A stretch of 64,000 nt of DNA from Candidatus Babeliales bacterium (GTDB lineage: Bacteria; Babelota; Babeliae; Babelales; JBFXEV01), in the NCBI GenBank assembly GCA_050179755.1, contig JBFXEV010000001.1:809994-873993 (forward strand). Direction: 5' to 3'. The position numbers and the translations under genes were made by a program. Shown here piece after piece: positions 11,039-64,000 of this stretch. The notes under the pieces were generated by a model. It saw only the letters and a list, made by a program, of their open reading frames with translations. It was not told where the DNA came from and did no database searches. The number at the start of each line of letters is the position of its first letter. The stretch's first letter is position 1.

Positions 11039-11047
11039 GGATATTAC

Positions 11048-36278: not shown

Positions 36279-36297
36279 AAAGCTATAATTTCAAGCA

Positions 36298-36385
36298 GCC
36301 GGGATGGCGGAACTGGTAGACGCACAGGACTCAAAATCCTGCGGGGCTTGCCCCCGTGTCGGTTCGATTCCGACTCCCGGCACCA
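36298..36385 (+). tRNA. tRNA-Leu(CAA)
   Basis: GCCGGGATGGCGGAACTGGTAGACGC...CTCAAAA...variable arm...GTTCGATTC...ACCA. Confidence 0.96.
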
Positions 36386-36585
36386 ACCTGCGCCAATCCA
36401 GCCTACGCTTATAGCTCCGGCGGACAGGGGCTCAGAGTTGGAAACCGCTCATCCTGAGTGAATCGCGAAGCGATTTGTATCGAGGGACGGTTGGCAGGCC
36501 AGTTTACTTTAATGCGTAGGTTGCGCGTCGGAGTTAGCCAAGCGAGCGTAGTGAGCCTGAATTAACGTAGGCGGGCAGTCTTTTG
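36383..36585. repeat. Nested palindromic repeat cassette at the tRNA-Leu 3' end
   Basis: Same element as behind tRNA-Ser(GCT) with two additional inserts (about 36397-36429 and 36434-36487). Confidence 0.85.
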
Positions 36586-36617
36586 GATTTTCTTAATACC
36601 TAAAAAAGATAGATTTT

Positions 36618-36956
36618 ATGAACAACTCCTGCATCTTTTGTAAAATAATCGCCAAAGAAGTTCCTTGCACGCCAGTATATGAAACAGATGACATCCTAGT
36701 CATCAAAGATTTATATCCAAAAGCACCCATTCATTATTTAATTATTCCCAAAAAACATGCAAAAGACATTCAAGATCTTGCACATGATGACATGCATCTT
36801 GGTGCATCAATGATCAAAGTTGCCAAAGAATTATCCGCTCAATTGCCAGGAACAGGTGATTTTAAGTTAGTGGTCAATAGTGGAGAAGGCTCTGGTCAAA
36901 GCATATTCCATCTTCATATGCACTTTGTTGCTGGCAAACAATTGGGTGAAATTTAA
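36618..36956 (+). CDS. HIT (histidine triad) nucleotide-binding protein
   Basis: CIFCKII, P.APIHYLIIPKKH and QSIFHLHMH motifs. Confidence 0.93.
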   Translation: MNNSCIFCKIIAKEVPCTPVYETDDILVIKDLYPKAPIHYLIIPKKHAKDIQDLAHDDMHLGASMIKVAKELSAQLPGTGDFKLVVNSGEGSGQSIFHLHMHFVAGKQLGEI

Positions 36957-36973
36957 TAAGCCAACAAAAAAGC

Positions 36974-41499: not shown

Positions 41500-41608
41500 T
41501 GAACATGCAGCAATCTAAGGGCGTTTAGAAAGCATTGTTTTTTTACTGAATCCCTTTATCCTAAAATTATAAAAAGTAGTGTGTAATTTGGCAAAAAAGT
41601 AGGATGCA

Positions 41609-46570: not shown

Positions 46571-48623
46571 GGATATATGGTTTATCTGCTCGCTGTTTAT
46601 ATTTATACCCATGCTGCATGCGGTTTCTATTGGCTCGAATACAGCATTAAGCCAGCAAGCACTTGCCAGTTTTCCTTTTTCAGATACAGATAATCAAATG
46701 CTTGGTTTTGCAGCATTTGTAAATGGTTTTACTTTGACTGGTGGCGGCAACTGTATATTTAATTCGTTGTATCCTATTGGTGGAACGGTTACTCTCAATG
46801 GCGGTACGCTTTCATTAAGCAAGGATCTTACGTTTCAAAAAAATATAACGCTTTATAAAGGCGGTATATTTAAGGGAAATGGTAAAAAGATTACTTTTCT
46901 GGATACCGATGGTTTGCAATTGCCTGCGTCTGGTACAGATCTTTTAAGTATGGCGTACCTTACACAGTATGATACGGGTGCATCAGTTATTGCATGTGAT
47001 TGGTCGCATGATAATCACACTATTGCCATTGCCAATAGCTCTTCTGCCTATATTGATGCGTTTAATTTTGTTCCTAATGCGCTTACTGCTGGAGGAATTT
47101 CATCTGCTGCCACTACTAATTTTTTGTGTGTTGCATGGCATCCTACGCTTAACTATCTGGCAACTGGTAGAAAACAAGGCTCATCAACAAAGAATATACA
47201 ATTATGGCAGTATAATCCATCACTTGATACGTTTACCTTACTTGATCAGGAAGCTCAAAATAAAGATATTACTGCTGTTGCATGGCATCCATCAGGCAAT
47301 TATCTTGCTGTAGCCACTGCAAATGGTCAAGGGATTATCATATATTCTTTAGTGAATAATGCTTTGACTTATGTGTCTGAAGTAGATCTTACACCAAGCA
47401 GAAACATTTCTAATGCACTCAGCTGGGACAGTACAGGAACGTATTTGGTTGCAGGCACTGCATCATCGGGTGCAAATAAGAGCTATGAAGTATTAGTATA
47501 TTCGTTTAATGGTTCTGTGCTTACATTAAATACCTACCTGGATCTTAATACGTTAGTTAATGCTGTAGCGTATTGCCCTACTTCAACGTATATTGCTGTT
47601 GGCCTTAATTCTGGTTCAGATAGATTTCGTATGTATGCGCACAACCCGCAAACAGGAACACTTACTAAAGTTTCATCGATTAATTTAGGCATATCACTTG
47701 CAGTGCTTGCAGCAGATTGGAGTCCAGACGGTAAGTATATTGCATTTGGTACTGCAAAAGGTTCAATTACCGAACTCAATGTGTATGCTTTTGATGCCGA
47801 TGAAGAATCGTTAACCCTTGTTGCTTCTTTTCATATGTTAGGAGCTGTTAATACGCTTAAGTGGTCGTCAGATGGCAGCTATCTTGCTGTTGGCGATAGT
47901 GTTGATAATTTATCAGTGTTTGGACTTTCGACTGCTGTTATTTTTAATGGCGTATTTTTAGAATGTAATTCAAACGTTACCTTTAACACACAAACTATAT
48001 TTCAGGGCGTTTGCATGATTGAGGGCAATAATCATACGTTGCAGTTTGCAAATCAAGGGTCATTACAAGTTGCAAGCGGGGCGTCATTAACACTTAAGAA
48101 TCTGACGCTGAGCAATATAACTGCATCTTCGTTCTATTGTGCCGATGGTACAGCAACTATTAATTTTAATAATGTTGAACTTAATTTGACTACCAATGAT
48201 TATACTTTTTCAAATGGTGCATTTAATGTAATTAATAAATTACGCATACAAGGTTCGCATACATTTAATTATCAATCAAACCAAATAAGCACCATTAAAG
48301 CTGCAGCAACATTGTTTCTTGATGGAGTAACATTGAACTATAATCCTTCTATTAGCGCAAATAATTTGCTAGCATTTGCAGATTCTACTGCATCTTTAGT
48401 CTTGCGTTCAGCAACATTTCAAATTTCAAATAAAGGCTTACAGTTAACTAAGGGGCATATTGAGATAGATGGCAAGTGTTATATTGTAAATAGCGGCACA
48501 CAAGCGGCGCAGGGCTTGTTGCTTGGTGATGGTAATTCTGCTGCAAATAATGTACTCGTGCGTATATTGCCAGAAGCGCAGTGTGTGGTAAGTTCTGGAT
48601 ATGTTGTGGATAAGAGCGTATGA
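46557..48623 (+). CDS. Secreted protein: beta-solenoid module with an inserted WD40-like propeller (ORF track starts it at 46542)
   Basis: GGGGAG RBS before TTG 46557; shared GFA.F..GF.L N-terminus; blades VAWHPSGNYLAV, WSPDGKYIAF and WSSDGSYLAV. Confidence 0.85.
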   Translation: MVLSRDIWFICSLFIFIPMLHAVSIGSNTALSQQALASFPFSDTDNQMLGFAAFVNGFTLTGGGNCIFNSLYPIGGTVTLNGGTLSLSKDLTFQKNITLYKGGIFKGNGKKITFLDTDGLQLPASGTDLLSMAYLTQYDTGASVIACDWSHDNHTIAIANSSSAYIDAFNFVPNALTAGGISSAATTNFLCVAWHPTLNYLATGRKQGSSTKNIQLWQYNPSLDTFTLLDQEAQNKDITAVAWHPSGNYLAVATANGQGIIIYSLVNNALTYVSEVDLTPSRNISNALSWDSTGTYLVAGTASSGANKSYEVLVYSFNGSVLTLNTYLDLNTLVNAVAYCPTSTYIAVGLNSGSDRFRMYAHNPQTGTLTKVSSINLGISLAVLAADWSPDGKYIAFGTAKGSITELNVYAFDADEESLTLVASFHMLGAVNTLKWSSDGSYLAVGDSVDNLSVFGLSTAVIFNGVFLECNSNVTFNTQTIFQGVCMIEGNNHTLQFANQGSLQVASGASLTLKNLTLSNITASSFYCADGTATINFNNVELNLTTNDYTFSNGAFNVINKLRIQGSHTFNYQSNQISTIKAAATLFLDGVTLNYNPSISANNLLAFADSTASLVLRSATFQISNKGLQLTKGHIEIDGKCYIVNSGTQAAQGLLLGDGNSAANNVLVRILPEAQCVVSSGYVVDKSV

Positions 48624-49696
48624 TAATGAAGTGGATCACTCCTGTTTGGGTAGTATTTTTTTTATGTTTTTCAGCTCGTGCTGTTATTTATGGTTCATTA
48701 ACAGCAGTGTCCCGTCAAGCGCTCATTACCTTACCTGCAAATGATGCAACAAATGAATTGCGTGGATTTGGTGCTTTTGAAAACGGTTTTACGCTAACGA
48801 ATGCTTCAACAGCCTGTTTATTTACTTCATTATTTCCTGTCTCGGGGCCCATTAGTTTAAATGGTGGTACGCTTACCTTAAATCAAAGTATGGTACTTGA
48901 TTCAGATGCTGATATAAAATCGGCAGGAATTATTGTAGGTAATAATTATAAGTTAGTGCTACCGGCTAAAATGAGTTCGTATACTCTACCTTCTACCACG
49001 CTTACTTGGGGCTTAACATTACATAGCGTAAAGTTATGTTTGCAATCAGATCTCGTGTTTAATGTACCGGTTATTTTTCAAGGCACGTGCGAAATTCAAG
49101 GAAATGGTTATTCGTTAACGCTTGCGCATGCAACAGGCATTAGTATTGCTAGCGGCGCATCTTTATTAATGAAAGACGTAATTGTTAAAAATGTTTCAGG
49201 CACTAAAATTGGCTTTGCAGCAACAAGTTCATTCTTAAAGATACAAGATGTGGTATGGTGCTTGAATGGTAATACCACGCTATCTACTGGCTACTTTAAT
49301 CTTATTGGTAATTGGTATATCAATGGTCCGTATTCGCTTTCCTATACCAGTGCGCAGACAAGCACAATCCTTTCTAATGGGCAGTTATGTATGGGCTTTG
49401 GCTCTACATTAAATTATGCTCCATCGGTGAGCGTGCAAAATTTACTACTATTTTCAGATGCTACTGCTAAGTTGCTTTTACATGGTGCAACGTTATCAGC
49501 TTCAACGGTTGGTATGCAGCTTACGCGTGGTTCATTAATTTGTGATGGTAAATCGTATATTACAAGTTCTGGAACTACTGCAGCGACAGGCATTAGTCTA
49601 GGTGGTGCAAGTTCTGGTGATGATGTGACCATTGAAATTTTGCCGGGCGCAAGCGTTGAGGTTGCAGGTTTTGTGGGGTATAAAAATTTTAATTAA
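48620..49696 (+). CDS. Secreted single-module beta-solenoid protein
   Basis: Start overlaps the upstream stop (ATGA); GFGAFENGFTL...FPVSGPISLNGGTL; MQLTRG...GISLG. Confidence 0.85.
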   Translation: MIMKWITPVWVVFFLCFSARAVIYGSLTAVSRQALITLPANDATNELRGFGAFENGFTLTNASTACLFTSLFPVSGPISLNGGTLTLNQSMVLDSDADIKSAGIIVGNNYKLVLPAKMSSYTLPSTTLTWGLTLHSVKLCLQSDLVFNVPVIFQGTCEIQGNGYSLTLAHATGISIASGASLLMKDVIVKNVSGTKIGFAATSSFLKIQDVVWCLNGNTTLSTGYFNLIGNWYINGPYSLSYTSAQTSTILSNGQLCMGFGSTLNYAPSVSVQNLLLFSDATAKLLLHGATLSASTVGMQLTRGSLICDGKSYITSSGTTAATGISLGGASSGDDVTIEILPGASVEVAGFVGYKNFN

Positions 49697-49739
49697 TTGA
49701 TATATTAAAAAAGTATAATAATCTTACCTTGAGAGTGGT

Positions 49740-52700
49740 ATGAATAAAAAAAGAGCTTGGAGCATACAGCATATCTTTGGCAGCTTTGCCGTCAATTTAC
49801 TCGTAAGTACTGTTATCTATGCGGCATCCTTTAACTGTGATAGTCCTAACTCCGCTTTAGTGCTTACTCCTGGTGCCACATTCAATATTGTAAATCCTAT
49901 TACTAATTTTAATGGTACGTTAACTATGCCAACCGAATCAACCGTTTCTGGCAGTACTATTACGTTTGCAGGCGGTTATTTACAAGGTACAGGAAATCGT
50001 GCATCGATTACCGGTCTGTATACACCAAGCACTAATCAATTGTCTATGACGGGTAATCATACGTTTAATGCAACGCCAGGCCTTTCGTGGGAACAACTTG
50101 CCGTAAGTGGTACAGGCAACTTGCTTGAAGGTCAACCCACATTTGTAAGCGATATCGTTCTTGCAAATGCAAGCACTGCACTTACTATTGCAATTCAAAA
50201 TACACTAAATGTTAATATAGCGCTTGCAGGTGGTGCGGTAACGCTTGGTAGTGATTTGCGTTTTGCAGATGGCAAAGGTTTTACGGGTAATGGTACAGTT
50301 AATTTAACAAACAATGGTTTAACATTTGGCGGTACGCCACTTGTATGGTCAAATAATATTACGTGGAATAATGCTGGTAACCTGCGTTTACATGGTAAAG
50401 TAAAAGTAACAGGAACTCATACGTTTTCTGGAGTGAGCGCGCTGAATGGAAATGGTAATATTCTTGATCTTTCGGGAGGTGGCTCACTTATTGTGCCGGC
50501 ATCATCAACACTCTATCTTTCTGATCTAGTAATCAAAGGTTTGGGTACAGGTGGTGGCACCATTTTGCTTGCGGCGCCTACTTCACAACTTCGTCTTTCT
50601 CATGTAACGCTTGAGCTCGTAGGGAACTTAACTACATCTCAAGGTTCTATATATATTGAGGGTCCGTCAACAGTTGTTGTTAATAATTTTACGTGGACGG
50701 TGAATTCATCTGGGTTATTGATAGTAGATGGTGTAACTCTTTGGACAGATTCTGTTGGCGCATCATCACCGGGAACGATTACCTTTGGCAGTCCACTTTC
50801 AACATATCTATCGCTTGTTGCAACCGGGACTATTAAGAATGCAGGTTCTGGCTCGGTAACTACTGCGGCTTTTAATGCTTTGAATGCTCGTTTAACAACA
50901 GATGAAACAAATATTACTACACTTCAAGGTCAAATGACTGCCGTAAATAGTAATGTGGCGTTAGTGCAAGGTCAAATGAGTACGGCTAATTCAAATATTA
51001 CTGCTGCTCAAAGTAATATTACAACGCTTCAAGGGCAAATGACCACCGCTACTACTAATATTACTGGAGCACAGGGTAGTATCACAGCACTGCAAAATCG
51101 TGCGGCTGTCGATGAAAGTGCGATTAGTACGTTACAGACAAATATGACAGCTGCACAAAATACTATTGCTTCTGCTCAGTCTAATATCACTGCTTTGACT
51201 ACGCGCATGACTACTGTAGAAGGTAATATAAGTACCGCACAAGATAATATTGCGTCATTGCAAACTAACGTGACGAGTGCACAAGCATCTATTGGCACGT
51301 TGCAAACAAACGCAGCAAATGATGAAAGAAATATTACGGCATTGCAAACAAGCGTTGCCGGAGCGCAAACGTCTCTAACAGGTTTAGGCACGCGTATGAC
51401 AGCTGCCGAAACAAATATTACAGGTGCTCAAGGTTCTATTGGCACATTGCAGACAAATATGAGTGCTGCACAGGGAAATATTACAGCCTTGCAAACTCGT
51501 GTAACTGCAGACGAGAATACGCTTGCCACGGTGCAATCAAATATAACGGCAGCGCAAACAAGTATCACCGGTCTTGGCTCTCGTATGACAACGGCAGAAA
51601 ATAATATTACTGCGTTGCAGTCACGAGTAACAGCTGATGAAACTTCTCTTAGTGGATTGCAAACAAGCGTTACAGCAGCTCAAAATGCCATCGCTACGAA
51701 TCAATCCAGTATTACCGCATTAACCACACGAGTTACTAGTGCAGAAAGTACTATTCATACAGCCCAATCAAATATTACAACATTACAATCAGGCATGACT
51801 AGTGCACAAAACTCGATTGGTACCTTACAAACCAAGCTAACAGCAGATGAAGCCAATATTGCTTCTTTGCAAACAAATGTTGCTGCCGTTCAAACAAGTA
51901 TTACAGGATTAGGCACTCGCGTGAATGCTGCCGAAAGTACTATCACTTCAGCACAAAGTTCACTTACTGCGTTGCAAACAAGTCTTGCATCCTCTCAGGA
52001 TGCCATAACTACATTGCAAACCAATGCAACGGCTGATGAGCAGAATATCGCAACGTTGCAAACTAACATGACGGCAGCACAAAATGATATTACTGCTCTT
52101 GGCACCCGCATGACGAGTGGTGAAAATAATATTACAAGTTTGCAAGGTTCTGTTGCCACATTACAGACAAATGTAACTAATGATGAAAGAAATATTGCCA
52201 CATTACAAACAAACATGGCAAATGCGCAAGGCACTATTACCGGGCTTACCACGCGCATGACAACAGCTGAAGGGGCGATTGTTAATTTGCAAACAAATGC
52301 AGCTTCAGATGAACGTAACATTAGCACACTACAAACAAATGTGACGGGTGCTCAAAATGCTATTACTAGTTTGCAAGGATTAGTTTCTACGTTACAGGCA
52401 AATGTAGCATCCGATGAAAGATCTATTGCAGCATTACAAACAAACATGGGGGGTGCGCAAAGCGCCATTACTACACTGCAGCGCAATGCGCTTATTAATG
52501 AAGGAAACATTCTAACATTACAAACAAATCTATTTTCAGCTCAAAATAATATTAATGTTCTCTTGCCGCGTATGACGAGCGCTGAAAATAATCTAATAAA
52601 TTTACAATTAAATATAGCAACTGCTCAAGAATCGTTGAATCTTTTACTTAGTGAATACCATAAGGTAGTGCATGTAAACGGTCATATGGTGTTTGATCAT

Positions 52701-55700
52701 GCACGAATGCTCAGAGAACATGGCGCACTCATATTTGAATTTTGTCCTGGTCGCCTAGATGATTTACCGACAATTACCTTTGTAAAAAATACACAGCTTG
52801 AAATGCCAAGGAATGCGCACCTCGTGTTTAAGGGACATGGCACCGTGATTTTAAAAGATGGTGTTCAGCTTACCTTGAACAGTGAAGTTGCAAAAAATAA
52901 ACCAACGTTAGTGTTTGATGATAATGCTACGTTGCGTGTTGCAAAAAATGGGCAAGCTGCAATAGCGGGCCGTGGTACCATTTGCTTGCAAAATGGCGGT
53001 TCATTTGAATTGACAAAGAAATCTCAATTAGTGCTTGGCACAAGCTCACGTGATGTGATTCACGTGGAAATGAAACAATTTGGTGCATTATCATTGCAGC
53101 ACCGTGATGCAGAAATTGCTTTTGCACATGGCCAGTTTGATATTCTTGCTGATTTGTGTGGTGTAATAAATATTGCGCGAGGTCGGTTATGCTTGAATGC
53201 GCGGCATCAAACTGAAGCGCCAGGGCGTATTAAACATTTTGCGTTGCGAGGTAATTCACTATTGCATATTGATCAAGGTCAGTTGGTGTTGGGTGATAAC
53301 AGTGATAATAGTAAAACATTTATTGATTGTACTTCAGGCCTGATTCAGGGTCATGGCAGAATGCGTTATCTCTCGAGCAATGCTCTTATAGACATTCAAA
53401 ATAATCCATTTATAGGCAGTTATGATATCATAACAATCTTTATGAAGCTTGGGTATATTGTGCCAGATGAAAAATCGCAGCCTTCTATTCTTGTGCATTC
53501 ATTTGATAAACTGGCAGCATTTTTGCCAGTGCGCGATGGTAGCATTGTGCGTCTTGAGCCAGGCGATCACGCAATTACTTATAGAGATGATGGTATTTTT
53601 GGATATGATCGCGATAAACGCTTATTTAGTATTAATCGTGATGGTACAAGAAATCGTATTGGCGATCTTGAACCGCTTGGCTGTTGCGATTTAATTACGC
53701 AAGCAGAATCTAACATTGCCAATTTAGAAGCGTTAACAAACCAATTATCAGGGCGTGTGGTTTCAGCTGAAAGTGGTATTTCTGTTTTGCAAACACGCGC
53801 AACTAACGATGAAGCAGCAATAACCCAGTTGCAGGTAAATGCGCAAGCAGCGCAGACAAATATTACGGGATTACAAAGCAGTATCTCCACTGTTCAACTT
53901 GGTCTTGCATCCGCGCAAAGCTCAATTGCTTCGTTGCAAACAAATGCGACAGTAGATGAAAGCCATATTACAACTTTACAAGCTAATATGGCGATAGCAC
54001 AAAATAATGTTGCGGGACTTACTACGCGCATGACTCTGGCTGAGGGTGGGTTGGGTTCAGCGCAAAGTGCTATCAGCGCATTGCAATCGCGAGCCACAAC
54101 GCACGAGAGTTTGTTGAGTGCGTTGCAATCTAATATGACTAACGCCCAAACAAATATCACGAGCCTAGGTTCTCGTATGGCCACTGCGGAAGGTGCGATT
54201 TCTTTACTGCAAAACAATATGAGTGGTTTGCAATTAAATGTTACAGGATGTCAAACAAATATTGCTGCGCTTGCTGCCAGAGCATTAATCGATGAAAGTA
54301 ATATTAGTGCGTTGCACGATGGATTTGCAACAACACAAACAGCTGTTAGTGGTCTTGGCATACGCATGGCAAGTACAGAAGGGGCTGTGACTATTTTGCA
54401 AAATAATGTGAGTACGTTGCAAGCTGATGTTATTGCCACGCAAAGCGTATGTACCGCACTTCAAACGAGTGCTCTTGCTGATGAGCATGCTATTTGGGCA
54501 TTACAAAGTAATATGACTATGGCACAAAGTAGTATTAACGTTCTTGATGCGCGTGTTACTAGTGTTGAAGAGGATTTGCAAGTTGCACAAGGGGCACTTG
54601 GTAGCCTGCAAACAAACCTTGCTCATGATGAAAGTGTTTTGTCGATTTTACAAGACAATGTTGCAGGCACACAAAGTGGCATTAGCTTACTTCAAACACG
54701 CATGGGAGTAGCAGAAAACACTTTGACGATTGCACAAGCACATATTGCCGCGTTATTGAGTAATATGCTTTCTGCCCAAGGTGCCATTAGCACGTTACAA
54801 ACAAATGCTTTAGCTGATGAGCATGCAATTGCTGTATTGCAAAATAATATCAGCAGCGCACAAACAACTATTGGCAGTTTATCAACACGGATGAATCAGG
54901 CAGAGGGAGCACTTACGGTAGCGCAAGGCAGTATTATTCATTTACAAACAACAATGACCACGGTGCAAAACTTGGTCGATACGCTTGACCTTGCACGAGA
55001 ATTAAATGAGCAAGTTATTAGAGCATTACAAACAGATGCTGTAACTAAAACAACACAGATTCAGGGATTAGAATCGCAAATTGATTCTTGTCAGTCTAAC
55101 ATTCAAGCTACTCAAACAGCTTTGAGTGCTTTGCAGCAACGAGTGACTATCGATGAAAGCAATTTAGTAAGCATAGAGTCTGGTTTGCAAAGTACCGTTA
55201 ATGCTCTTTCCGATATTACTGATCGTGTGACGATGGCAGAAGTTGATATTCAAATTACGGTAACAACGCTTGCTGCGTTGCAAACAACTATGACCATTGT
55301 TGAACATGATTTAAGTGCTGCGCACGCAAATATACTTGCATTGAACGGCCGCATGGCCAGCGCCGAGCATGAAATTGATATGTTGCAATCGGCGACGCAT
55401 CTCTTGGATACTCGATTAATTGTTGCAACACAATCCATAGATCTTATAAATGAGAGAATGGGCATAGCAGAGCAAGATATTGTGTTACTTGCAACGGCAA
55501 CGGCAGAAATTGCAAATCGCGTAATGGTTTTAGAAAATACTACCATTGCCTTTAATCAAGAACTTGATCAGTTAGTGACAGGTTCACAGTTGCAGCAAAA
55601 TTTATTGTCAATTAACTATCGGTTATATAACGCGGAAGCACACATAACCACCGCTCAAATTGATATTGCTGATGTAAAAAATCGTGTTGATAATGCTGAA

Positions 55701-58700
55701 ATGTTGCTTTCTCTTTTTGATACTACAACGCTTGCTTTTGCTAATCGCATGCTGCAGATTGAATCTGTGGATTTTGATTTCCAAAATCAGATTGATGCAC
55801 TCAACACAAGTACTTTGGTGCTTCAACAAGAAATTAATGAACTTATTCAACGTAACCAGGCAGCGGATGGTTTGCTTGAAACATATAGTCTTCAATTTGT
55901 GCAAGATGCTCTACGCCTTGCAATGCTCGAAACTGCAACGCAGTATCTAGAGGCGAGTTTAGATGTGGGGCAAAGTGATATGCAAGCCATTGTACAACGA
56001 GTTTCTGTTCTTGAATCAACTGATAATGAGCTTGTTCAAGCAGTAGATTTACTTAATGCAAGTACATACATCTTGCAGCAAGAGTTAGATGTATTGAGCG
56101 GGCAGATGATTAACGCACAAAATGGCCTTGGAGCGTTGCAAACACAGCTTAATGCTGATGAGAATGCCATTGGTGTATTGCAAACGACTCTTTCTCATGC
56201 ACAAAGTACTGTTATGGGCCTTGCTAATCGAATAAGCAGCGCTGAAACTCATATTGCGATCGATGAGCAACGCATGCTTGCTATGCAAGTTAACATGGCT
56301 GATGCACAAACTACTATTCTAACACTTACCAGTCAAATGGCAGGAGCGCAAGAAGCAATTATTGCAGCACAAGCGCACTTGTTTAGTCATGATATTGCGT
56401 TAAATCTAGTGCAAAGTGCACTGGTTGATACACAAACTGCATTGAATGTACTTCACATGCAAAATGCTCTAGATGAGCAAGCTATCGCTGCATTGCAAGT
56501 TGACATGCTTGCTACGCAAACGCATATTACGGATCTTACTATGCGTAGTGATCTTACAGAAAGTGCGTTAGCACAACAGCATGAAGCGTTAGCTGCAGTG
56601 CAACAACAGGCGTTGATTGACGAACATGCTCTTGCTGTAGTGCAATCGACTTTGAGTACTGCACAAACGGCTATTGACGTGTTATCAGGGCGCACGAGCA
56701 ACACAGAAAGTGCATTGGTTGGTGTGCAGGGTGCTTTGAGCATTGTGCAAACCAACATGCAAGTTGCGCAAAGCACTATAAGTACTTTACAAGCCAATGC
56801 ATTAACTGATGAAGCAAGTATTGTTCAATTACAAACGAATATGATCGATACGCAATTAGCTATTGCAGGTCTTGATACGCGTGTGGGCAATGCACAAGAT
56901 GATGTTACTAGTATTCAATCAGATGTGCTGGTATTACAAGTAACTATGACCAGTGTACAACATGATATTGCGCAACTGCATAATGAAAATGCTCTAGAAC
57001 AGAATATGCTTGGAACATTGCAAATGCAATTGCTTGAAAGTCAAACGCATATTATAGAGCTCACAACAGATATGCTTCAAGCAGACTTTGCCATTGGTTT
57101 GTTGCAAATGCAAAGAGCAGATGATGAGCTAGCAATAGCTGCATTGCAATCAGGTTTAGTGGCAGCACAACAGACTGAAGAGCTTTTAGATAATCGTTTA
57201 GTGCGTGCACAAAATGCTCTTGATATGTTAGATTCGGCAACGCAGGCATTAAGTTCTCGTGTAGATTCATTAGAATTAGTTGATAGAGAACACAACGAAT
57301 TATTTGAATTGGTGAGTGCAAGCACGGGTAGTTTACGTGAATTTGTTCAAGTGCTCGACCAGCAACTGAGCAGTGCGCAGGCACATATTATGCAGCTAGA
57401 AACGAGTACGCAAGCATTAGCTGCACGTGTTGGTGACATTGAAATTATCGATACTCATATGCAGCAGCAGATTGCAATGCTTATTACAAGCACGCAAGCG
57501 TTGCAACAAGAAATTACTGGATTAATGAGTGATGTATTACACCTTCAAGACAATGTAATGACATTGAGTCAGCAAACGGGAATGGCGCAGCAAGATATTA
57601 TGACGTTGCAATCTTGTTGTACGGAACATGATGCGCGTCTTATTGCGTTGGAACAAGCAGGCATTAGTTTTAATGAGGAATTGGATATGCTTGTTTCCAA
57701 CACTGAGTTTCAACAGAATTTGCGATCACTTAATTATAGGCTACAACTTGCAGAAACAAATCTGAGCGGGGCGCAAACAGACATTGAATTGCTTGATGGT
57801 CGTATGCTTATTGCGCAAGATGTACTTTCAAATTTGGTAACAGCAAGTGCTGTATTTGATACTCGTTTACTTACGTTAGAATCTGCTGATCGAAGTTTCC
57901 AAGATCAGGTTGATTTGCTCTATGCACACACAGGAGCATTACAAGTTTTAGTTGACGGCCTGAGTCAAAGAGTTGATAGTGCAGAGTCTGCAGTGCATAT
58001 GTTAGATACGGCAACCCAAGCACTTGATAGTCGTATTGCTACTATTGAAATTACAGATGCACATGTGCAAACTCAGCTTGATGCATTGCATACAAGTACG
58101 GTGCACGCACAAGTGCAATTTAATGATCTTGGCATGCATATGAATCAGGCACAAACAATGTTAACCGCACATGGCAATCGTTTAGATATGTATAGTGATA
58201 CGCTTGATCTGTTAAGTACGGCAACACACAGCCTAGATATGCGCTCGCTTACTGCACAAACAAATCTTGATGCCTTAGTTGTTCGTCTGACTGCAGATGA
58301 AACAATTGCTGCGCAATTATCACATGACGTTGAATTGCTTTCATCAAGTACTTCGTTCTTGCAAACAACATTAAATGAATTAGCGTTGCGCACAACAAGT
58401 TGTGAGATGACGCTTTCTCAATTAGCAGATGCGCAAAATCAAGATGAGGTTGCCATCGCCATATTGCAAACTGGTATGAGCGCTGCACAGGATACACTTA
58501 CAGGCCTTTCAGGTAGAACGGCACAAACAGAATTTGCACTTACTGATGCACAAGCAAGTATCGAAACGCTTGAAACGAGTGTTATTACCGCGCAGGGTGG
58601 TATTGCAATTTTGCAAAATCAAATGACGCTTGCACAATCTAATATTGCGAACTTGCAATTTAATGCGCACATTGATGAAAATATGCTGAGTGTATTGACT

Positions 58701-61700
58701 GCACATATGCAGAATGCGCAAGCTGATATTCATGATATTGAAGCGCAGGCTATATCTGTGCGTTATACGGTTTCAACCTTGCACGATGATTTGCAGCAGG
58801 TACAAACCCGCGTTACGGGCCTGAGTATGTCTATGGATATAGCGCAAGCAGACATACTAACCGCGCATGATGCAATTTCATTATTGCAAACTCAAAGAAC
58901 AGCAGATGTGAATGCGCTTACGCTCATACAAAGTAACGTATCGCTTACTCAAAATAATCTTGCAGCACTTACCGATCGCTTGCAACAAGATGAAGATAAT
59001 GCTTTTACCTTGCAAATAACAGTATCACAAGCAGAGCATAAACTTGCTACTATGCAAGATACTCTTATAACGCATAATCAAGAAATGGCTGGATTGAGCA
59101 CGAGAATATCACATGCACAGGAGGCAATTGATACGTTGGATACCACCACGGTATATTTGAAAGAACTTATTGATCTTCAAGCGGTAATTGACACTCAATT
59201 ACAGCAGCAACTTGGCATGGTTGCCACTGCAACAGCATTGCTCAGTACGCAGGTACATCTTCTTGATGGATCGTTGCAAATAGCGCTTCAGAATATGGCA
59301 GTCCTTACAGGATCGCTTGAAGATGCACAAGTTGACATTGCATTGTTAAGCAGTGATACAGGAAACTTGGCAAATAGGGTAGCAGTTCTTGAAGCAACTG
59401 ACATAGTATTTAATGATGAGATAGAGGGATTATTAACTAATACGCAGTTACAGCAAAATCTTCTTTCACTTAATTATCGTCTTAATGCAGCAGAAAGTAC
59501 ACTTACGCAGGCACAGTCAGAAATTTCTACACTTGAATATCATACGCAATCAGCACAAACTGCGTTGACATTGTTACAAACGATAACGAGTGACTTTGCC
59601 ACACGTATTGCCTTGTTAGAAGACCAGGATAATAACTTTCAAACGCAACTTGATGCGTTACATACAAGCACGCATATAGTACAACAAGAGTTAGACTCGC
59701 TTTCTGGGCGTTTACAACTTACTGAGTACACTATTACTTCATTAGAACAGACAGCTACCCTGCTAGGGCAGCAACTAAGAAGTGCACAAGATGCATTTGC
59801 AGCGTGTCAAACTCAGCAACAAGATGCTAATGAAAACATTACAGAGTTGCAAACAACAGTTGACCTTATGCAAGATGGATTATTTGTACTTAAGCTTACT
59901 CTGTCTCGCGATGAGAGTGACTTAAGAGTAGCACAGCATGATATCAGTTTGGCACAGACGAGTATAGCAGCGCTTGATGCTCGATCCTCAATCGCTTCTG
60001 CATCAATTACTGCATTAGATACAGCATTGAATGCTTTGCAAGCTAACGTATCACATGATGAAAATCTTTTGAGTACATTGCAAACAACTATGACAACAGC
60101 GCATAGTGTTCAAGCAGCTTTACACACAAGGCTTACTGCAATTGAAGGTGTTTCAGTGAGTACTCAGCAGTCTTTGTCATTATTCCAAACTCAACTACTG
60201 ACTGCGCAAAATGACATGGCAGTTGCAGAAGGTACCCTTAGTGACCTTGGTGCACGCATGGACCTTACGCAAGCTGGTATTGCTTTGTTACAAACAGCTA
60301 CATCATGGCTACAAAATGCACTGAGTACTGTTACGGATTCATGTGAGCAGCTTACGGTTTGGCAGTCTCGAGCAGATACTCTCTTTGAGAACTTGGCTAC
60401 TGTTACAAACAACTTATCTGTCTGTTGCACTGAATTAGCTTCATTTGAAGATCATGTTCTGCAAGAATTGACACTCATTAAAACAAGTACGGGCGTATTG
60501 CAAGCAGAGCTTGACGAGCTTGATATCTACATGAGTAACGCACAAAGCTTACTTACTAATTTAAGTAGCGAGGTTGTAACGTTAGATGCACGTATTGCCT
60601 TAGATGAAAATGCAGACCAAGCACTACAAACGTTGGTGCAAGATGCGCAGAGCAAGATATTAGGGCTTGATACTCGCATACTACGTGCAGAAGGCAGTAT
60701 TACTGCTCATCATGATATACTTGCAACATTACAAACACAAGTAAATACAGACGCTGCAGCACTTATTAATCTTCAAAGTACTACTGTTGCAGCACAGCAT
60801 GAAATTGCCGCCCTAGCAGATCGCATAATAACTGTGGAAGGTGCCGTACGTATGCTGCAAGAAGACGAGCAGGTTGAACAGATTAAGCTTGCAGCGGTTG
60901 AAAATAGAGTGAACGCGTTAGAAGTGCAAACACTGCGCAATGAAAATATGGTAAGCGATTTAGTGACTTCCTTATCATTAACGCACATTGCGCAAAATGA
61001 GTACGATATACGTCTTGAAAATATAGAAAATGATCTAGTAACAGTCCATACAAATATAATTTCACTGCATACTACGCAACAGCAAGATGAAGCCTTAGTT
61101 AATCAATTGCACAGTAACTATATTTCGTTACAATCTACAATGACTTTGGTTCAAGCGTTAATAGCGCCCTTTGAGGAATTGCAAAATAATTACATGCAAT
61201 TTGAATCACGAATTACTGATATTGAAAATACGCTTGTTGATGTAGTTCCATCAGTATCAAATTTACAACATGCTTTTGTTATTGCAGAAGATAGCATTGC
61301 AGTGTTGCAGGATGCATATAATGCAGATGCGCAGTATATAAGCCAGTTGCAAACTTCGGTAACCCTCATTGAGCAAGAGCAAATTGACCATGCGCTGCGA
61401 TTGAGTGTGCTTGAAGATGCAGTACGTGCAGAAAAAGCTGGTCTTGCATCTATGCAAATAACTATGAGCTTCTGTGCACAAGATGTAAGTTCTCTTATTA
61501 TCGATTGTGCAAATAATCAACTTCACATGAATACCTTGCAACAAGACATATTTGCAGTACAAGGCGCACTTCTTGGCTTAGATACGCGCATGATTAGTGC
61601 AGAACATGCACTGGAAAAAGATCAAAGTGCTATTAAAGCATTGCAAGATGAAGATGCTGTAGACGATATTTCGATTGCAACGTTAGCTTCTACATTAAGT

Positions 61701-64000
61701 AGTGCGCAAAGTGATATTACGGGTCTCAAAACAAATATGTTTACCGTGCAAGATGGGCTAAGCACGTTACAAACAGGCGTAGCTGCTTTGGGTACTGGAG
61801 TAATCGATGTTCAAAACGCTGTATCAGTTGTTGAAGCGCGGCTTACAACTGATGAAAACACGCTCACTGCTTTAGGGGCAGCAGCAATTACTACACAAGA
61901 GCTTTTGACTAACGTCGATAGTCGTGTAACAACGGTTCAAAGTGAGCTTGGCTTTGCACAAAGTGAACTTGCAGTGTTACAGAATGCACAAGCAAGCGAT
62001 GCAAACACTCTTGCATTAGTGCAACAGATAACGCAGCAGCATGAAAATGATATTACGACGTTACAGATTACTATGTCTACTGCTCAACATACGGTCAGTA
62101 ATTTGAATACGCGCATATCTCAATTAGAAAATGATGATGTGTCAATGCAAAATACGCTCATCTTAGTGCAAAATAGACTACAACATGATGAAACTGCTCT
62201 TTCATCTCTTGCGCTTACCGTGAGCAGCGTGCAAGCAGATTTGAGCGGAGTGACTGCGCGTATGGCTCTTGCTGAAAGTGCAGTTTTTGCACAGCAGCTT
62301 TTAACAACTGATTTGCAAAACCGAGAAACGGCTGTCGAAGGCGCAGTGCTTACATTACAAGCACAGGTGAATGCCCATGAAAATACTTTAGGCACTCTAC
62401 AGCATGAAATGAGTGAATTGTATACTACCGTGAGCGTAGTGAGCAGCAGAGTTGCTTTAGATGAAGCGGTTCTTGCAAGAAGCCTATCAGATATAGGTAC
62501 GTTGCAGTACACGGTGACAGCATTGCAGACTTCTATTGCTGGATTGCAAGGAGAAATAATGATTGATGATAATCATATTACTACATTGCAATCAAATATG
62601 GTGGTAGCACAATCTGATATAAAGGCACTTGATATGCGCGTTGCTAATGATGAGGCGGCGCTTGTACATGCACAAAGCAGTCTAGGTAATTTGCAAAATT
62701 CAGTGCAATTAGATAAGACAGCAATTGGTACGTTACAAATAGATGTCCAGGCTGCACAATCTGATATAACAGCGCTTGGTAGTCGAGCAATAGCGTTAGA
62801 AGATGGTCTTATGGCAACGCAGTCAACGGTATTTACACTTAAGGCACACATGCTTGCAGATGACGCTATTTTAGGATCAGTGATTTCTGGCATTACCGTG
62901 GCAAATAATGCGCTTGCGCTTCTTGATGGCAAAACAAATCTATTGGATACTGCCGTATCTCAATTAGAACGAGATTTTGGCTTGATGCAAACTTTTACAC
63001 AAACGGTGCATGCTCGTTTAACTGCAGATGAATTGCTGCTTGATAGTTTGCGTATGTGTTGTTCTAGCTACCAAACGCAAGTAGATGCATTCAATGTTCA
63101 AATAGATGCGGTTGTTGATCAAATGAATGTACTTAGGCCGACAGTTCAAGCCGCGATTGATGGAATACACGATCAAGTAGTGGCTCTTAATGCGAACACA
63201 GAGCGTATTGAGCAACAAATTGCACAATTAGGTACGCAAGTGGGTACCAGTTGTGTTGTAACTATTGATGGCACAATGATATTTAATCATCAAGATGAGT
63301 TGCAAGAAGGCGCGGCACTTATTTTCCAATTTAACTCATGTAGATCACTTGATGTACCGCAATTGATCTTTGAAAAAGATATGGTGGTCACCATACCTCA
63401 AAATTCACGGCTTATTTTCAGAGGAGAAGGTGTTATAGTGCTCGAAGATGGGGTGCAGTTTGTGTTCACCGGATCAACTGAAGTTACTGCATCGGTCATG
63501 ATTCTTGAACGAAATTGTAATATGGAGCTTGCAGATTCTGCTATGGCACATATGCATGGTCAAGGTACTTTATTTATTCGTGATGGCGGCACTATACGTT
63601 TAACTAAACCATCGCAATTATTGTTTGGCAAGCAAGCGACTGACGTATTTAATCTTAATCTTATGCGTTTTGGCACGCTCCTTGTTGAACATGATGATGC
63701 TGAAATTTCATTTAACGAGGGCATATTTGATATTATTGCCGATCCGGTTGGCATCATTACCATTAACCGTGGTAGGATATGCATGAATCCTTATAATGCA
63801 TCAGGTTATATACGGCAGCTTTCAATACTAAATAGTTCAATTTTGCAAACTGATAAAGGCTGCTTAGTATTAAATACTAATGGTGATGATCAGCTTACGC
63901 GGTTTGATACTACTGGCGGTATTATCAGAGGTAAAAACGGTATTCGTTATAAACCATCAAATACCAATATTGATTTACAGCAAAATACTATTAAAGGTGA
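49740..64000 (+). CDS. Giant secreted fibre/adhesin-like protein (at least 4753 aa, runs off the window)
   Basis: ATG at 49740 (MNKKRAWSIQHIFGSFAVNLLVSTVIYA). The frame was open wherever I translated it, including the last line, and the ORF track lists no terminated ORF in this frame. Beta-rich head, long heptad repeats and two homologous globular domains. Confidence 0.9.
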   Translation, partial: MNKKRAWSIQHIFGSFAVNLLVSTVIYAASFNCDSPNSALVLTPGATFNIVNPITNFNGTLTMPTESTVSGSTITFAGGYLQGTGNRASITGLYTPSTNQLSMTGNHTFNATPGLSWEQLAVSGTGNLLEGQPTFVSDIVLANASTALTIAIQNTLNVNIALAGGAVTLGSDLRFADGKGFTGNGTVNLTNNGLTFGGTPLVWSNNITWNNAGNLRLHGKVKVTGTHTFSGVSALNGNGNILDLSGGGSLIVPASSTLYLSDLVIKGLGTGGGTILLAAPTSQLRLSHVTLELVGNLTTSQGSIYIEGPSTVVVNNFTWTVNSSGLLIVDGVTLWTDSVGASSPGTITFGSPLSTYLSLVATGTIKNAGSGSVTTAAFNALNARLTTDETNITTLQGQMTAVNSNVALVQGQMSTANSNITAAQSNITTLQGQMTTATTNITGAQGSITALQNRAAVDESAISTLQTNMTAAQNTIASAQSNITALTTRMTTVEGNISTAQDNIASLQTNVTSAQASIGTLQTNAANDERNITALQTSVAGAQTSLTGLGTRMTAAETNITGAQGSIGTLQTNMSAAQGNITALQTRVTADENTLATVQSNITAAQTSITGLGSRMTTAENNITALQSRVTADETSLSGLQTSVTAAQNAIATNQSSITALTTRVTSAESTIHTAQSNITTLQSGMTSAQNSIGTLQTKLTADEANIASLQTNVAAVQTSITGLGTRVNAAESTITSAQSSLTALQTSLASSQDAITTLQTNATADEQNIATLQTNMTAAQNDITALGTRMTSGENNITSLQGSVATLQTNVTNDERNIATLQTNMANAQGTITGLTTRMTTAEGAIVNLQTNAASDERNISTLQTNVTGAQNAITSLQGLVSTLQANVASDERSIAALQTNMGGAQSAITTLQRNALINEGNILTLQTNLFSAQNNINVLLPRMTSAENNLINLQLNIATAQESLNLLLSEYHKVVHVNGHMVFDHARMLREHGALIFEFCPGRLDDLPTITFVKNTQLEMPRNAHLVFKGHGTVILKDGVQLTLNSEVAKNKPTLVFDDNATLRVAKNGQAAIAGRGTICLQNGGSFELTKKSQLVLGTSSRDVIHVEMKQFGALSLQHRDAEIAFAHGQFDILADLCGVINIARGRLCLNARHQTEAPGRIKHFALRGNSLLHIDQGQLVLGDNSDNSKTFIDCTSGLIQGHGRMRYLSSNALIDIQNNPFIGSYDIITIFMKLGYIVPDEKSQPSILVHSFDKLAAFLPVRDGSIVRLEPGDHAITYRDDGIFGYDRDKRLFSINRDGTRNRIGDLEPLGCCDLITQAESNIANLEALTNQLSGRVVSAESGISVLQTRATNDEAAITQLQVNAQAAQTNITGLQSSISTVQLGLASAQSSIASLQTNATVDESHITTLQANMAIAQNNVAGLTTRMTLAEGGLGSAQSAISALQSRATTHESLLSALQSNMTNAQTNITSLGSRMATAEGAISLLQNNMSGLQLNVTGCQTNIAALAARALIDESNISALHDGFATTQTAVSGLGIRMASTEGAVTILQNNVSTLQADVIATQSVCTALQTSALADEHAIWALQSNMTMAQSSINVLDARVTSVEEDLQVAQGALGSLQTNLAHDESVLSILQDNVAGTQSGISLLQTRMGVAENTLTIAQAHIAALLSNMLSAQGAISTLQTNALADEHAIAVLQNNISSAQTTIGSLSTRMNQAEGALTVAQGSIIHLQTTMTTVQNLVDTLDLARELNEQVIRALQTDAVTKTTQIQGLESQIDSCQSNIQATQTALSALQQRVTIDESNLVSIESGLQSTVNALSDITDRVTMAEVDIQITVTTLAALQTTMTIVEHDLSAAHANILALNGRMASAEHEIDMLQSATHLLDTRLIVATQSIDLINERMGIAEQDIVLLATATAEIANRVMVLENTTIAFNQELDQLVTGSQLQQNLLSINYRLYNAEAHITTAQIDIADVKNRVDNAEMLLSLFDTTTLAFANRMLQIESVDFDFQNQIDALNTSTLVLQQEINELIQRNQAADGLLETYSLQFVQDALRLAMLETATQYLEASLDVGQSDMQAIVQRVSVLESTDNELVQAVDLLNASTYILQQELDVLSGQMINAQNGLGALQTQLNADENAIGVLQTTLSHAQSTVMGLANRISSAETHIAIDEQRMLAMQVNMADAQTTILTLTSQMAGAQEAIIAAQAHLFSHDIALNLVQSALVDTQTALNVLHMQNALDEQAIAALQVDMLATQTHITDLTMRSDLTESALAQQHEALAAVQQQALIDEHALAVVQSTLSTAQTAIDVLSGRTSNTESALVGVQGALSIVQTNMQVAQSTISTLQANALTDEASIVQLQTNMIDTQLAIAGLDTRVGNAQDDVTSIQSDVLVLQVTMTSVQHDIAQLHNENALEQNMLGTLQMQLLESQTHIIELTTDMLQADFAIGLLQMQRADDELAIAALQSGLVAAQQTEELLDNRLVRAQNALDMLDSATQALSSRVDSLELVDREHNELFELVSASTGSLREFVQVLDQQLSSAQAHIMQLETSTQALAARVGDIEIIDTHMQQQIAMLITSTQALQQEITGLMSDVLHLQDNVMTLSQQTGMAQQDIMTLQSCCTEHDARLIALEQAGISFNEELDMLVSNTEFQQNLRSLNYRLQLAETNLSGAQTDIELLDGRMLIAQDVLSNLVTASAVFDTRLLTLESADRSFQDQVDLLYAHTGALQVLVDGLSQRVDSAESAVHMLDTATQALDSRIATIEITDAHVQTQLDALHTSTVHAQVQFNDLGMHMNQAQTMLTAHGNRLDMYSDTLDLLSTATHSLDMRSLTAQTNLDALVVRLTADETIAAQLSHDVELLSSSTSFLQTTLNELALRTTSCEMTLSQLADAQNQDEVAIAILQTGMSAAQDTLTGLSGRTAQTEFALTDAQASIETLETSVITAQGGIAILQNQMTLAQSNIANLQFNAHIDENMLSVLTAHMQNAQADIHDIEAQAISVRYTVSTLHDDLQQVQTRVTGLSMSMDIAQADILTAHDAISLLQTQRTADVNALTLIQSNVSLTQNNLAALTDRLQQDEDNAFTLQITVSQAEHKLATMQDTLITHNQEMAGLSTRISHAQEAIDTLDTTTVYLKELIDLQAVIDTQLQQQLGMVATATALLSTQVHLLDGSLQIALQNMAVLTGSLEDAQVDIALLSSDTGNLANRVAVLEATDIVFNDEIEGLLTNTQLQQNLLSLNYRLNAAESTLTQAQSEISTLEYHTQSAQTALTLLQTITSDFATRIALLEDQDNNFQTQLDALHTSTHIVQQELDSLSGRLQLTEYTITSLEQTATLLGQQLRSAQDAFAACQTQQQDANENITELQTTVDLMQDGLFVLKLTLSRDESDLRVAQHDISLAQTSIAALDARSSIASASITALDTALNALQANVSHDENLLSTLQTTMTTAHSVQAALHTRLTAIEGVSVSTQQSLSLFQTQLLTAQNDMAVAEGTLSDLGARMDLTQAGIALLQTATSWLQNALSTVTDSCEQLTVWQSRADTLFENLATVTNNLSVCCTELASFEDHVLQELTLIKTSTGVLQAELDELDIYMSNAQSLLTNLSSEVVTLDARIALDENADQALQTLVQDAQSKILGLDTRILRAEGSITAHHDILATLQTQVNTDAAALINLQSTTVAAQHEIAALADRIITVEGAVRMLQEDEQVEQIKLAAVENRVNALEVQTLRNENMVSDLVTSLSLTHIAQNEYDIRLENIENDLVTVHTNIISLHTTQQQDEALVNQLHSNYISLQSTMTLVQALIAPFEELQNNYMQFESRITDIENTLVDVVPSVSNLQHAFVIAEDSIAVLQDAYNADAQYISQLQTSVTLIEQEQIDHALRLSVLEDAVRAEKAGLASMQITMSFCAQDVSSLIIDCANNQLHMNTLQQDIFAVQGALLGLDTRMISAEHALEKDQSAIKALQDEDAVDDISIATLASTLSSAQSDITGLKTNMFTVQDGLSTLQTGVAALGTGVIDVQNAVSVVEARLTTDENTLTALGAAAITTQELLTNVDSRVTTVQSELGFAQSELAVLQNAQASDANTLALVQQITQQHENDITTLQITMSTAQHTVSNLNTRISQLENDDVSMQNTLILVQNRLQHDETALSSLALTVSSVQADLSGVTARMALAESAVFAQQLLTTDLQNRETAVEGAVLTLQAQVNAHENTLGTLQHEMSELYTTVSVVSSRVALDEAVLARSLSDIGTLQYTVTALQTSIAGLQGEIMIDDNHITTLQSNMVVAQSDIKALDMRVANDEAALVHAQSSLGNLQNSVQLDKTAIGTLQIDVQAAQSDITALGSRAIALEDGLMATQSTVFTLKAHMLADDAILGSVISGITVANNALALLDGKTNLLDTAVSQLERDFGLMQTFTQTVHARLTADELLLDSLRMCCSSYQTQVDAFNVQIDAVVDQMNVLRPTVQAAIDGIHDQVVALNANTERIEQQIAQLGTQVGTSCVVTIDGTMIFNHQDELQEGAALIFQFNSCRSLDVPQLIFEKDMVVTIPQNSRLIFRGEGVIVLEDGVQFVFTGSTEVTASVMILERNCNMELADSAMAHMHGQGTLFIRDGGTIRLTKPSQLLFGKQATDVFNLNLMRFGTLLVEHDDAEISFNEGIFDIIADPVGIITINRGRICMNPYNASGYIRQLSILNSSILQTDKGCLVLNTNGDDQLTRFDTTGGIIRGKNGIRYKPSNTNIDLQQNTIKG

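Follow-up and report, generated by a model that had tools for sequence, protein, structure and literature searches.

The locus described here raises the question of what a bacterium of the Candidatus Babeliales encodes in an open reading frame (ORF) of more than 14 kb. The ORF lies at the end of the window, which is the whole stretch of DNA analyzed (64,000 nucleotides, positions 809,994 to 873,993 of contig JBFXEV010000001.1, assembly GCA_050179755.1). Positions 49740-63998 of the plus strand form a single open frame of 4753 codons, with an ATG start at 49740, no stop codon and an open 3' end. GC content was within 0.40-0.42 along the whole ORF. It is a real gene. Its product, here the giant protein, is judged from its sequence to be an extreme and uniquely fused member of a new protein family. 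The reading we favor, and consider somewhat probable, is an exported trimeric fiber of head, rod and bead domains with a separately encoded partner resembling an outer-membrane protein (OMP), serving contact with a protist host.

An earlier note on this DNA had described one frame of at least 4753 codons, and full translation without an in-frame stop confirmed this. The note had also called the ORF unannotated. No annotation was missed; the absence is a by-product of the open 3' end. The giant ORF is missing from the closed-ORF track because its frame runs off the end of the window, and that track holds 0 ORFs of at least 150 amino acids (aa) in 49740-64000 when open-ended frames are excluded.

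Layout of the giant protein and its stalks

The domain order, the heptad stalks and the duplicated globular domain were as first noted, with boundaries within a few codons. The following features were assigned, with domain folds taken from AlphaFold2 (AF2) models.

49740..49823, plus strand: signal-peptide-like N-terminus, aa 1-28 (MNKKR, then a hydrophobic stretch to ..VIYAAS; read from the translation)
49824..50891, plus strand: head, aa ~29-384, an all-beta solenoid-like domain (AF2)
50892..52664, plus strand: stalk 1, aa 385-975, 591 residues in 84 heptads with 0 register breaks
52665..53675, plus strand: bead 1, aa 976-1312, a beta-solenoid with a small C-terminal beta domain (AF2)
53676..63248, plus strand: stalk 2, aa 1313-4503, 3191 heptad residues with 5 discontinuities
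63249..63998, plus strand: bead 2, aa 4504-4753, the first 250 residues, interrupted by the window end

The heptad signal was strong in both stalks. Mean local hydrophobic power at period 3.5 was 3.13 in stalk 1 and 1.50 in stalk 2, compared to means of 0.17 and 0.21 (maxima 0.42 and 0.30, respectively) in 200 shuffles of each. In the head and bead it was at shuffle level. With break penalties from 5 upward, a Viterbi trace of the register gave 0 breaks in the 591 residues of stalk 1 and 5 in the 3191 residues of stalk 2. Lowering the penalty to 4 gave 29 breaks and to 3 gave 57. The breaks are one-residue skips at aa 1949, 2655 and 3235, a shift of +4 at 3811 and a shift of +3 at 4473. The three skips fall within a recurring element, FN-E...QQNL-S-NYRL, which marks diverged super-repeats of ~580-700 aa in stalk 2.

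55551..55625, plus strand: conserved 25-residue element carrying a one-residue skip, first copy
57669-57743, plus strand: the same element, second copy
59409-59483, plus strand: the same element, third copy

The heptad core has I, L, V or M at position a, and L (44% in stalk 1), A (33% and 19%) or D at position d. Position e is mainly Q or E and position g is N, S, R or A. Ile occupies 47% of a positions in stalk 1 and is nearly missing from d (0% in stalk 1 and 4% in stalk 2). Polar residues make up 0% of a and 17% of d in stalk 1. The motif R-h-x-x-h-E was matched 20 times in strict form and 43 times when Ala was allowed at d, compared to ~0.4 and ~0.5 expected. All matches are in register with R at g.

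Lys accounts for 18 of 3782 stalk residues (0.5%, compared to 6.4% in 31 other ORFs of the window) and Pro for 4 of 3782 (4.1% in the same ORFs). Arg was retained at 2.7-2.9%. Stalk 2 is strongly acidic, with 375 D+E to 108 K+R. Four Cys-Cys doublets were located, 3/4 of them at heptad positions g-a according to the register trace. An L-x-x-C-C motif was also found in stalks of relatives.

57615..57620, plus strand: Cys-Cys doublet at g-a (aa 2626-2627)
60423-60428, plus strand: Cys-Cys doublet at g-a
63057-63062, plus strand: Cys-Cys doublet at g-a
53682-53687, plus strand: Cys-Cys doublet at the start of stalk 2, outside the g-a set

The 3782 coiled-coil residues at 0.1485 nm each give a computed rod of 562 nm (88 nm for stalk 1 and 474 nm for stalk 2), in line with the 550 nm or more first proposed. 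To our knowledge a nearly unbroken coiled coil of ~0.57 micrometers would rank among the longest. With 84 unbroken heptads followed by 3191 residues with five breaks, the protein offers coiled-coil research a natural system in which to examine how very long trimers fold and how long and stiff they are. No tandem DNA repeats were found in the giant ORF. Dispersed DNA repeats were 60-78% identical, those inspected were spaced by multiples of 21 nt, and the internal protein repeats of stalk 2 were at most 58% identical in a chunked BLAST comparison. The length is therefore attributed to old, diverged duplication and not to mis-assembly. The giant gene also contains seven antisense ORFs of 103-130 aa (51995-62932, minus strand), which are most likely by-products of the repetitive codon pattern, not genes.

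The head and the bead are confidently predicted to be all-beta, solenoid-type folds. The AF2 model of the head, built from 40 sequences, had a mean predicted local distance difference test score (pLDDT) of 91.0 and a predicted template modeling score (pTM) of 0.85, and it consisted of strands throughout. The signal-like N-terminus was modeled as a helix at residues 4-23. The model of bead 1 (36 sequences) had a pLDDT of 93.7 and a pTM of 0.91. The head motif NGNGN-ILDL (aa 236-245) is invariant. Each bead contains 5 Cys. Bead 1 and bead 2 are 38% identical over 251 aa (E 1e-64), and bead 2 matches positions 3-251 of the 349-position bead model.

Neither domain matched a Pfam or NCBIfam family. 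Foldseek found no PDB structure for the head at E<=0.001 (best were TibA, a PL6 lyase and Ag43 at E>=0.06) and nothing for the bead in PDB or BFVD at the same threshold. The weak matches of both models were beta-helix adhesins, autotransporter passengers, tailspikes and pectate lyases. A PDB profile search with the bead alignment gave nothing below E 0.29. In the ESM Atlas the best scores for head and bead were 0.84-0.86 (lead level 0.9), with vague beta-solenoid or autotransporter-like neighbors. A word-index protein search, less sensitive than an exhaustive one, found no match for the head among proteins of near length and none for bead 1 among longer proteins. Both end domains are confidently predicted beta-solenoids unlike any deposited structure.

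The head-rod-bead family and a linked outer-membrane-like gene

An exhaustive search with bead 1 against 1.84 billion representative proteins returned 108 proteins at E<=1e-3 and 39 at E<=1e-10. In 47/108 a head is present at the N-terminus, directly after a signal-like segment. The head of the giant protein aligned with 39 relatives over ~330-360 residues at 27-41% identity, and its signal-like N-terminus aligned with theirs. These proteins form an undescribed family with a signal peptide, a beta-solenoid head, a variable rod and a C-terminal bead. It has no name, Pfam model or solved structure. Neither the family nor surface fibers of Dependentiae were described in the main-text passages covered of PMC10434106, PMC6561590, PMC4776705 and PMC12724268.

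Rods are freely exchanged within the family and include coiled coil, Cys-Cys-rich coiled coil, collagen-like helix and other repeats. By a strict measure 15/108 proteins have at least 100 heptad-periodic residues. The longest of these relatives has 1085, compared to 3059 in the giant protein, which is the largest family member found in this analysis. Among 20 relatives scanned, two carry Pfam Collagen repeats (P0023, E 3e-14; P0059, E 1e-44) and four carry WD40 propellers. In another library protein, P0007 (7573 aa), 35 separate stretches aligned with a 77-residue part of the bead. P0007 probably falls outside the family and is a repetitive beta-solenoid protein unrelated to it.

The bead is a terminal domain in this family. 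A complete bead end was present in 67 stored proteins, and in 66/67 the bead lies within 15 residues of the C-terminus. The sole exception is bead 1 of the giant protein, the only internal bead among the 67, and the giant protein (P0001) is the only stored protein with two beads. The "beads-on-a-rod" design first proposed is therefore not a property of the family. Bead 1 ends in the terminal motif of the family (..RLFSINRDGTRNRI), followed by a 7-residue linker, a Cys-Cys doublet and new heptads. An internal bead with a normal terminal motif and a 7-residue linker to new heptads suggests that the giant protein is the product of an in-frame fusion between a head-rod-bead gene and a headless rod-bead gene. 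Headless family members do occur, for example P0005.

The position of the bead also points to where the ORF ends. P0004, an ortholog-like fragment of 478 aa, is 48% identical over 397 aa to the last 400 residues of the giant protein, runs 89 aa past the equivalent of the window end and then stops. Because the bead is terminal in 66/66 relatives and P0004 stops 89 aa later, the giant ORF is predicted to end ~90 codons on, probably 85-100 codons past the window end.

GTDB species genomes were scanned with the head alignment, giving 21 related loci (referred to by L numbers below). By title 10 are Dependentiae, TM6 or Babeliales, 8 are "uncultured Pseudomonadota" and 3 are "bacterium". In 14/21 loci the matched gene contains or is flanked by further ORFs with modules. 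Locus L001, from a Dependentiae metagenome-assembled genome (MAG), is syntenic with the window, with the same order of module genes and an upstream EamA gene at 48% identity. Of 31 window ORFs, the EamA gene alone had a match in the fetched loci. The locus titles and this synteny fit a Dependentiae (TM6/Babelota) origin of the giant gene, which is considered probable. The L001 counterpart of the giant gene (9962-13681) encodes only ~1240 aa, and its rod consists of LESCCE-type Cys-Cys heptads followed by three G-P-T collagen-like blocks and then the bead. Module arrays in the related MAG loci are sometimes fused into proteins of up to ~2700 aa (L012 1748-9847). A further L012 gene (9926-14071) encodes a head and ~500 residues of NNSNA-containing repeats, with no bead detected and no OMP-like gene after it.

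A gene of 534-597 codons follows the bead-ending gene on the same strand in 8/8 loci with such a gene and is present in 0/13 fetched loci without one. The gap between the two genes ranged from -49 to 1369 nt. A one-sided exact test of this linkage among the 21 loci gave p ~5e-6, with the limits that the loci are not independent and several end at contig ends.

L001 13704-15461: OMP-like gene
L002 4366-6003: OMP-like gene
L003 15009-16661: OMP-like gene
L004 15030-16685: OMP-like gene
L005 14978-16633: OMP-like gene
L006 5189-6844: OMP-like gene
L014 4017-5618: OMP-like gene
L018 2576-4330: OMP-like gene

The product has a signal-like N-terminus and 12-16% aromatic residues. It has a terminal Phe after alternating hydrophobic residues (7/7), and its strongly alternating windows reached or exceeded the maximum of 200 shuffles (7/7). 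No Pfam, NCBIfam or PDB match was found. Nineteen library relatives were unnamed or "hypothetical", and those with an organism name came from Dependentiae or TM6. These patterns suggest that the OMP-like protein may be a separate anchor or pore for the fiber family. A homologous gene would be expected just downstream of the window end. In three loci the bead and OMP-like genes are separated by a gene for a conserved K/E-rich protein (400-443 aa) that starts with a signal-like segment and matches no family.

L003 13662-14990: K/E-rich protein gene
L004 13793-14998: K/E-rich protein gene
L005 13726-14955: K/E-rich protein gene

The head was more conserved than the bead in 38/38 relatives carrying both. 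Because the head is better conserved and the bead gene is linked to the OMP-like gene, the bead is suggested to be the membrane-proximal or export-coupled end and the head the displayed end.

Within the window the giant gene is preceded by three paralogues, which are Lys-poor (3.0-3.5%). Signal peptides, as judged from sequence, are present on all four proteins of this cluster. A promoter and terminator scan of 41300-50100 found sites no more common than in shuffles.

41609..46570, plus strand: P0003, 1653 aa, signal peptide and four head-type modules
46542..48623, plus strand: P0112, 693 aa, one head-type module split by a WD40 propeller
48620..49696, plus strand: P0002, 358 aa, signal peptide and one head-type module

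Probable trimer, proposed surface fiber and alternative identities

The stalks quite probably form trimers. Collagen helices need three chains, and a trimer is supported by the collagen-like rods of relatives, including the syntenic L001 gene. The best PDB sequence matches of stalk 1 were the P22-type tail needle gp26 (4lin, E 1.4e-10) and reovirus sigma-1 (6gaj, E 1.6e-7), and that of stalk 2 was gp26 (4lin, E 3.8e-10). Dimeric tropomyosin matched only at E 9.5e-4. A trimer is also supported because the best matches are trimeric viral fibers and because 43 R-h-x-x-h-E motifs are in register, this being a trimerization-type motif as defined in the available part of PMC3653964. The earlier note had called the stalk a trimer, which is probably right, for largely other reasons: the collagen-like rods of relatives and the PDB matches to trimeric viral fibers. 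Its rule that Ile or Val at a favors trimers does not hold; trimers are linked to Ile spread evenly over a and d (PMC3653964, same part), and Ile in stalk 1 is 47% at a and 0% at d. The Cys-Cys doublets at g-a could close a three-chain disulfide ring. A three-copy complex prediction of bead 1 (residues 975-1307, own alignment) scored 0.00 against a mark of 0.42, which speaks neither for nor against a trimer.

In the favored reading the rod would have lengthened through old internal duplications, and an in-frame fusion would have joined a complete head-rod-bead unit to a headless one of rod and bead, giving a head, an 88-nm rod, a bead, a 474-nm rod and a bead. Three parallel chains would wind into a left-handed coiled coil, stabilized by R(g)/E(e) salt-bridge motifs and probably by disulfide rings at the Cys-Cys doublets. 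The product would be a stiff, acidic, lysine-poor fiber of ~0.56-0.58 micrometers. It would be exported by Sec and then handled at the outer membrane by the separately encoded beta-barrel-like protein, with the C-terminal bead cell-proximal or coupled to secretion and the conserved head at the tip. An extracytoplasmic location is supported by the signal peptides on the four cluster proteins, the conserved Cys-Cys doublets and the 5 Cys per bead. The protein may be exposed on the surface and act in host capture or uptake, and its likely role would be contact with the protist host, whether by adhesion, by capture or by promoting uptake.

The Dependentiae, obligate parasites of protists, are widespread, and their ways of encountering and entering a host are largely obscure. 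More tentatively, the head-rod-bead proteins and the OMP-like gene might together be a new two-gene surface-fiber system, functionally analogous to trimeric autotransporters, in which a separate barrel recognizes the C-terminal bead and which here builds a trimer of ~0.57 micrometers. The gene pair has been found so far mainly in Dependentiae-labeled MAGs. Such a fiber might extend outward from a sub-micrometer cell, enlarge its effective size and so promote its capture and ingestion by a phagotrophic protist. A similar role has been proposed for the fibrils of giant viruses. With the linked OMP-like gene, a new mode of fiber anchoring or export in diderm bacteria becomes a testable hypothesis.

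Several points weigh against the favored reading. The true C-terminus of the giant protein and everything downstream lie beyond the window end. The visible 4753 residues contained no anchor, lipobox or known secretion domain, and no homologue of the OMP-like gene was found within the window. No TpsB or type I secretion neighbor was found among 30 flanking ORFs scanned from 8 related loci. Export, trimer state, anchoring and host contact are reasoned and not proven, and the putative beta-barrel nature of the OMP-like partner is read from sequence patterns. No fibers were reported in the searched portions of the Dependentiae literature. The core composition is not classically trimeric, with Ile at a, nearly none at d, and Leu at d. 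R-h-x-x-h-E is found in certain dimers as well (PMC3653964, same part). The gp26 and sigma-1 matches are to low-complexity heptad repeats and may reflect composition and not descent. The strong lysine depletion would also suit a protein acting in the host cytosol.

The last of these points leads to the alternative that survives best, a secreted effector that works in the host cell, where it would be a long tether or scaffold, for example spacing organelles or membranes. The depletion of Lys in the stalks to 0.5%, from 6.4% elsewhere in the window, would then look like avoidance of host ubiquitination. The visible giant protein has no anchor, the genomic context is that of an intracellular parasite rich in ankyrin, leucine-rich-repeat (LRR) and WD40 proteins, and the same cluster encodes a WD40 propeller, a domain also fused into relatives. 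According to the covered part of PMC6561590, Chromulinavorax reorganizes the mitochondrion of its host, and signal peptides are present on 44% of Chromulinavorax proteins. We nevertheless consider an effector rather unlikely. Disulfides, which form only in an oxidizing compartment, are suggested by the conserved Cys-Cys doublets and the Cys-rich beads, and the OMP-like gene follows the bead-ending gene in 8/8 loci. No injection system was found among the 30 flanking ORFs scanned. Collagen-like rods such as those of the relatives are typical of surface fibers.

A dimeric or otherwise non-trimeric coiled coil, such as a periplasmic or envelope-associated structural rod, is improbable. Ile at a with Leu at d and almost no Ile at d is a dimer pattern, and the generic Pfam matches included Tropomyosin at 40.1 bits (cut-off 38.6) and Crescentin below its cut-off. 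The collagen-like segments of relatives force three chains, however, and the 43 in-register motifs are of the trimerization type. Trimeric fibers exceeded tropomyosin in PDB by 3 to 7 orders of magnitude, and Gln and Asn, not charged pairs, prevail at positions e and g.

The giant protein resembles trimeric autotransporter adhesins (type Vc; YadA, BadA, SadA) in its Sec signal, beta-rich head, very long stalk, rod interrupted by globular domains and likely role in adhesion. It also shares a polar bias to d in stalk 1; polar residues in trimeric autotransporter stalks are ~5% at a and 45% at d (PMC13580157, in the part covered). That it is an ordinary member with a YadA anchor just past the window is very improbable, even with an N-terminal head, a long stalk with an interspersed globular domain, a C-terminus beyond the window and a diderm host encoding BamA. 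No YadA_head, YadA_stalk, HIM, Hep_Hag or anchor match was found in the 4753 visible residues, and a Pfam scan at E<=1 gave generic coiled-coil families only. The PF03895 anchor was likewise missing from 6/6 complete C-termini of relatives (P0004, P0005, P0009, P0011, P0023 and P0059). The bead is terminal in 66/66 relatives, and P0004 ends 89 aa past the window-end equivalent. Autotransporter identity was rejected on these grounds. Unlike trimeric autotransporters, the relatives end in a 330-aa beta-solenoid bead in place of a 4-strand barrel segment, and the putative membrane partner is a separate gene. BadA is ~240 nm long, and the rod of the giant protein would be more than twice that.

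A tail-fiber or tail-needle gene of a phage or prophage is equally hard to credit. The stalk repeats resemble the helical core of P22 gp26, and the bead has a weak Foldseek likeness (E 0.004-0.05) to phage pectate-lyase-like and tailspike proteins. Gp26 and sigma-1 are the closest solved sequences to the stalks and share the unit R-V/M-T-T-A-E-G-x-I-x-x-L-Q-T-N, with R in position g, Ala or Leu in d and Glu in e. Head and bead had no match in 50,697 phage records, however, and stalk matches there were below 32% identity. The window neighbors are cellular genes and paralogues, not phage genes, and the family loci lie in bacterial MAG contigs beside housekeeping MutS, UvrA and RF. Unlike the solved chains of 133-300 residues, the giant protein has 3782 heptad residues. 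Membership of the gp26 tail-needle family was rejected, the PDB homology being confined to heptads and no phage tail context being found.

An assembly or sequencing artefact that joined two genes or inflated a repeat would place an internal bead exactly where relatives have a stop codon, in a sequence that is possibly metagenomic, and it was rejected as very improbable on the divergence of the dispersed repeats and of the beads, the lack of tandem repeats, the 7-residue linker straight to heptads with no signal peptide or start remnant after bead 1, and the even GC content.

Three further known systems were compared. Bacterial collagen-like surface fibers include BclA of the Bacillus exosporium, Scl and Lcl. 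The relatives resemble them in carrying G-x-y rods between terminal domains, and by analogy a C-terminal globular domain could nucleate the trimer. Unlike those fibers, the head-rod-bead family has unrelated beta-solenoids as terminal domains. PF01391 Collagen repeats were not found in the giant protein and were present in P0023, P0059 and the L001 gene. As in two-partner secretion (TPS), a large beta-helical exoprotein gene adjoins a probable outer-membrane beta-barrel gene. The likeness of the head to TPS domains (HMW1, EtpA) was weak and not significant (Foldseek E 1.4-1.6). TpsA/TpsB identity was rejected, with no TPS (haemagglutination activity) domain found and the partner matching none of POTRA, ShlB and Omp85. 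Unlike in TpsA/TpsB, the OMP-like gene is linked to the C-terminal bead and not to an N-terminal signal domain. Type IX cargo carries a C-terminal Por secretion-tail domain. Bead 1 and bead 2 had no NCBIfam match of any kind at E<=0.1, scans of P0004, P0005 and P0006 gave only generic coiled-coil matches (e.g., SMC) and no secretion tail, and this identity was also rejected. By analogy, the giant protein appears to work most like a trimeric autotransporter or a viral attachment fiber, yet by the searches above it belongs to neither.

Other genes of the window

The window also encodes BamA, a PilC/GspF-type protein and many ankyrin and LRR proteins, a gene content that fits a protist-associated diderm. 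Ankyrin and LRR proteins are typical of protist-associated bacteria. Five ankyrin-repeat proteins and one LRR protein are encoded at 7420-8538 (minus strand), 15974-17116 (plus strand), 33373-38722 and 19045-20457 (plus strand). Two of them had sub-threshold matches to Legionella Dot/Icm Ank effector models, in the repeats only.

Two paralogous CPBP/Rce1-type CAAX protease genes flank a TetR-type regulator at 9574-11866 (plus strand). They matched the MmRce1 model at E 7e-67 and 5e-60, below the model cut-off. A 600-aa protein with two tandem alpha/beta-hydrolase domains is encoded at 13066-14868 (plus strand). The GspF/PilC-type platform protein (type II secretion or type IV pilus) is encoded at 27965-29164 (plus strand). 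Downstream are three small ORFs and then a 574-aa Pro/Lys-rich ORF without a family match, and the region is possibly a pilus or secretion locus.

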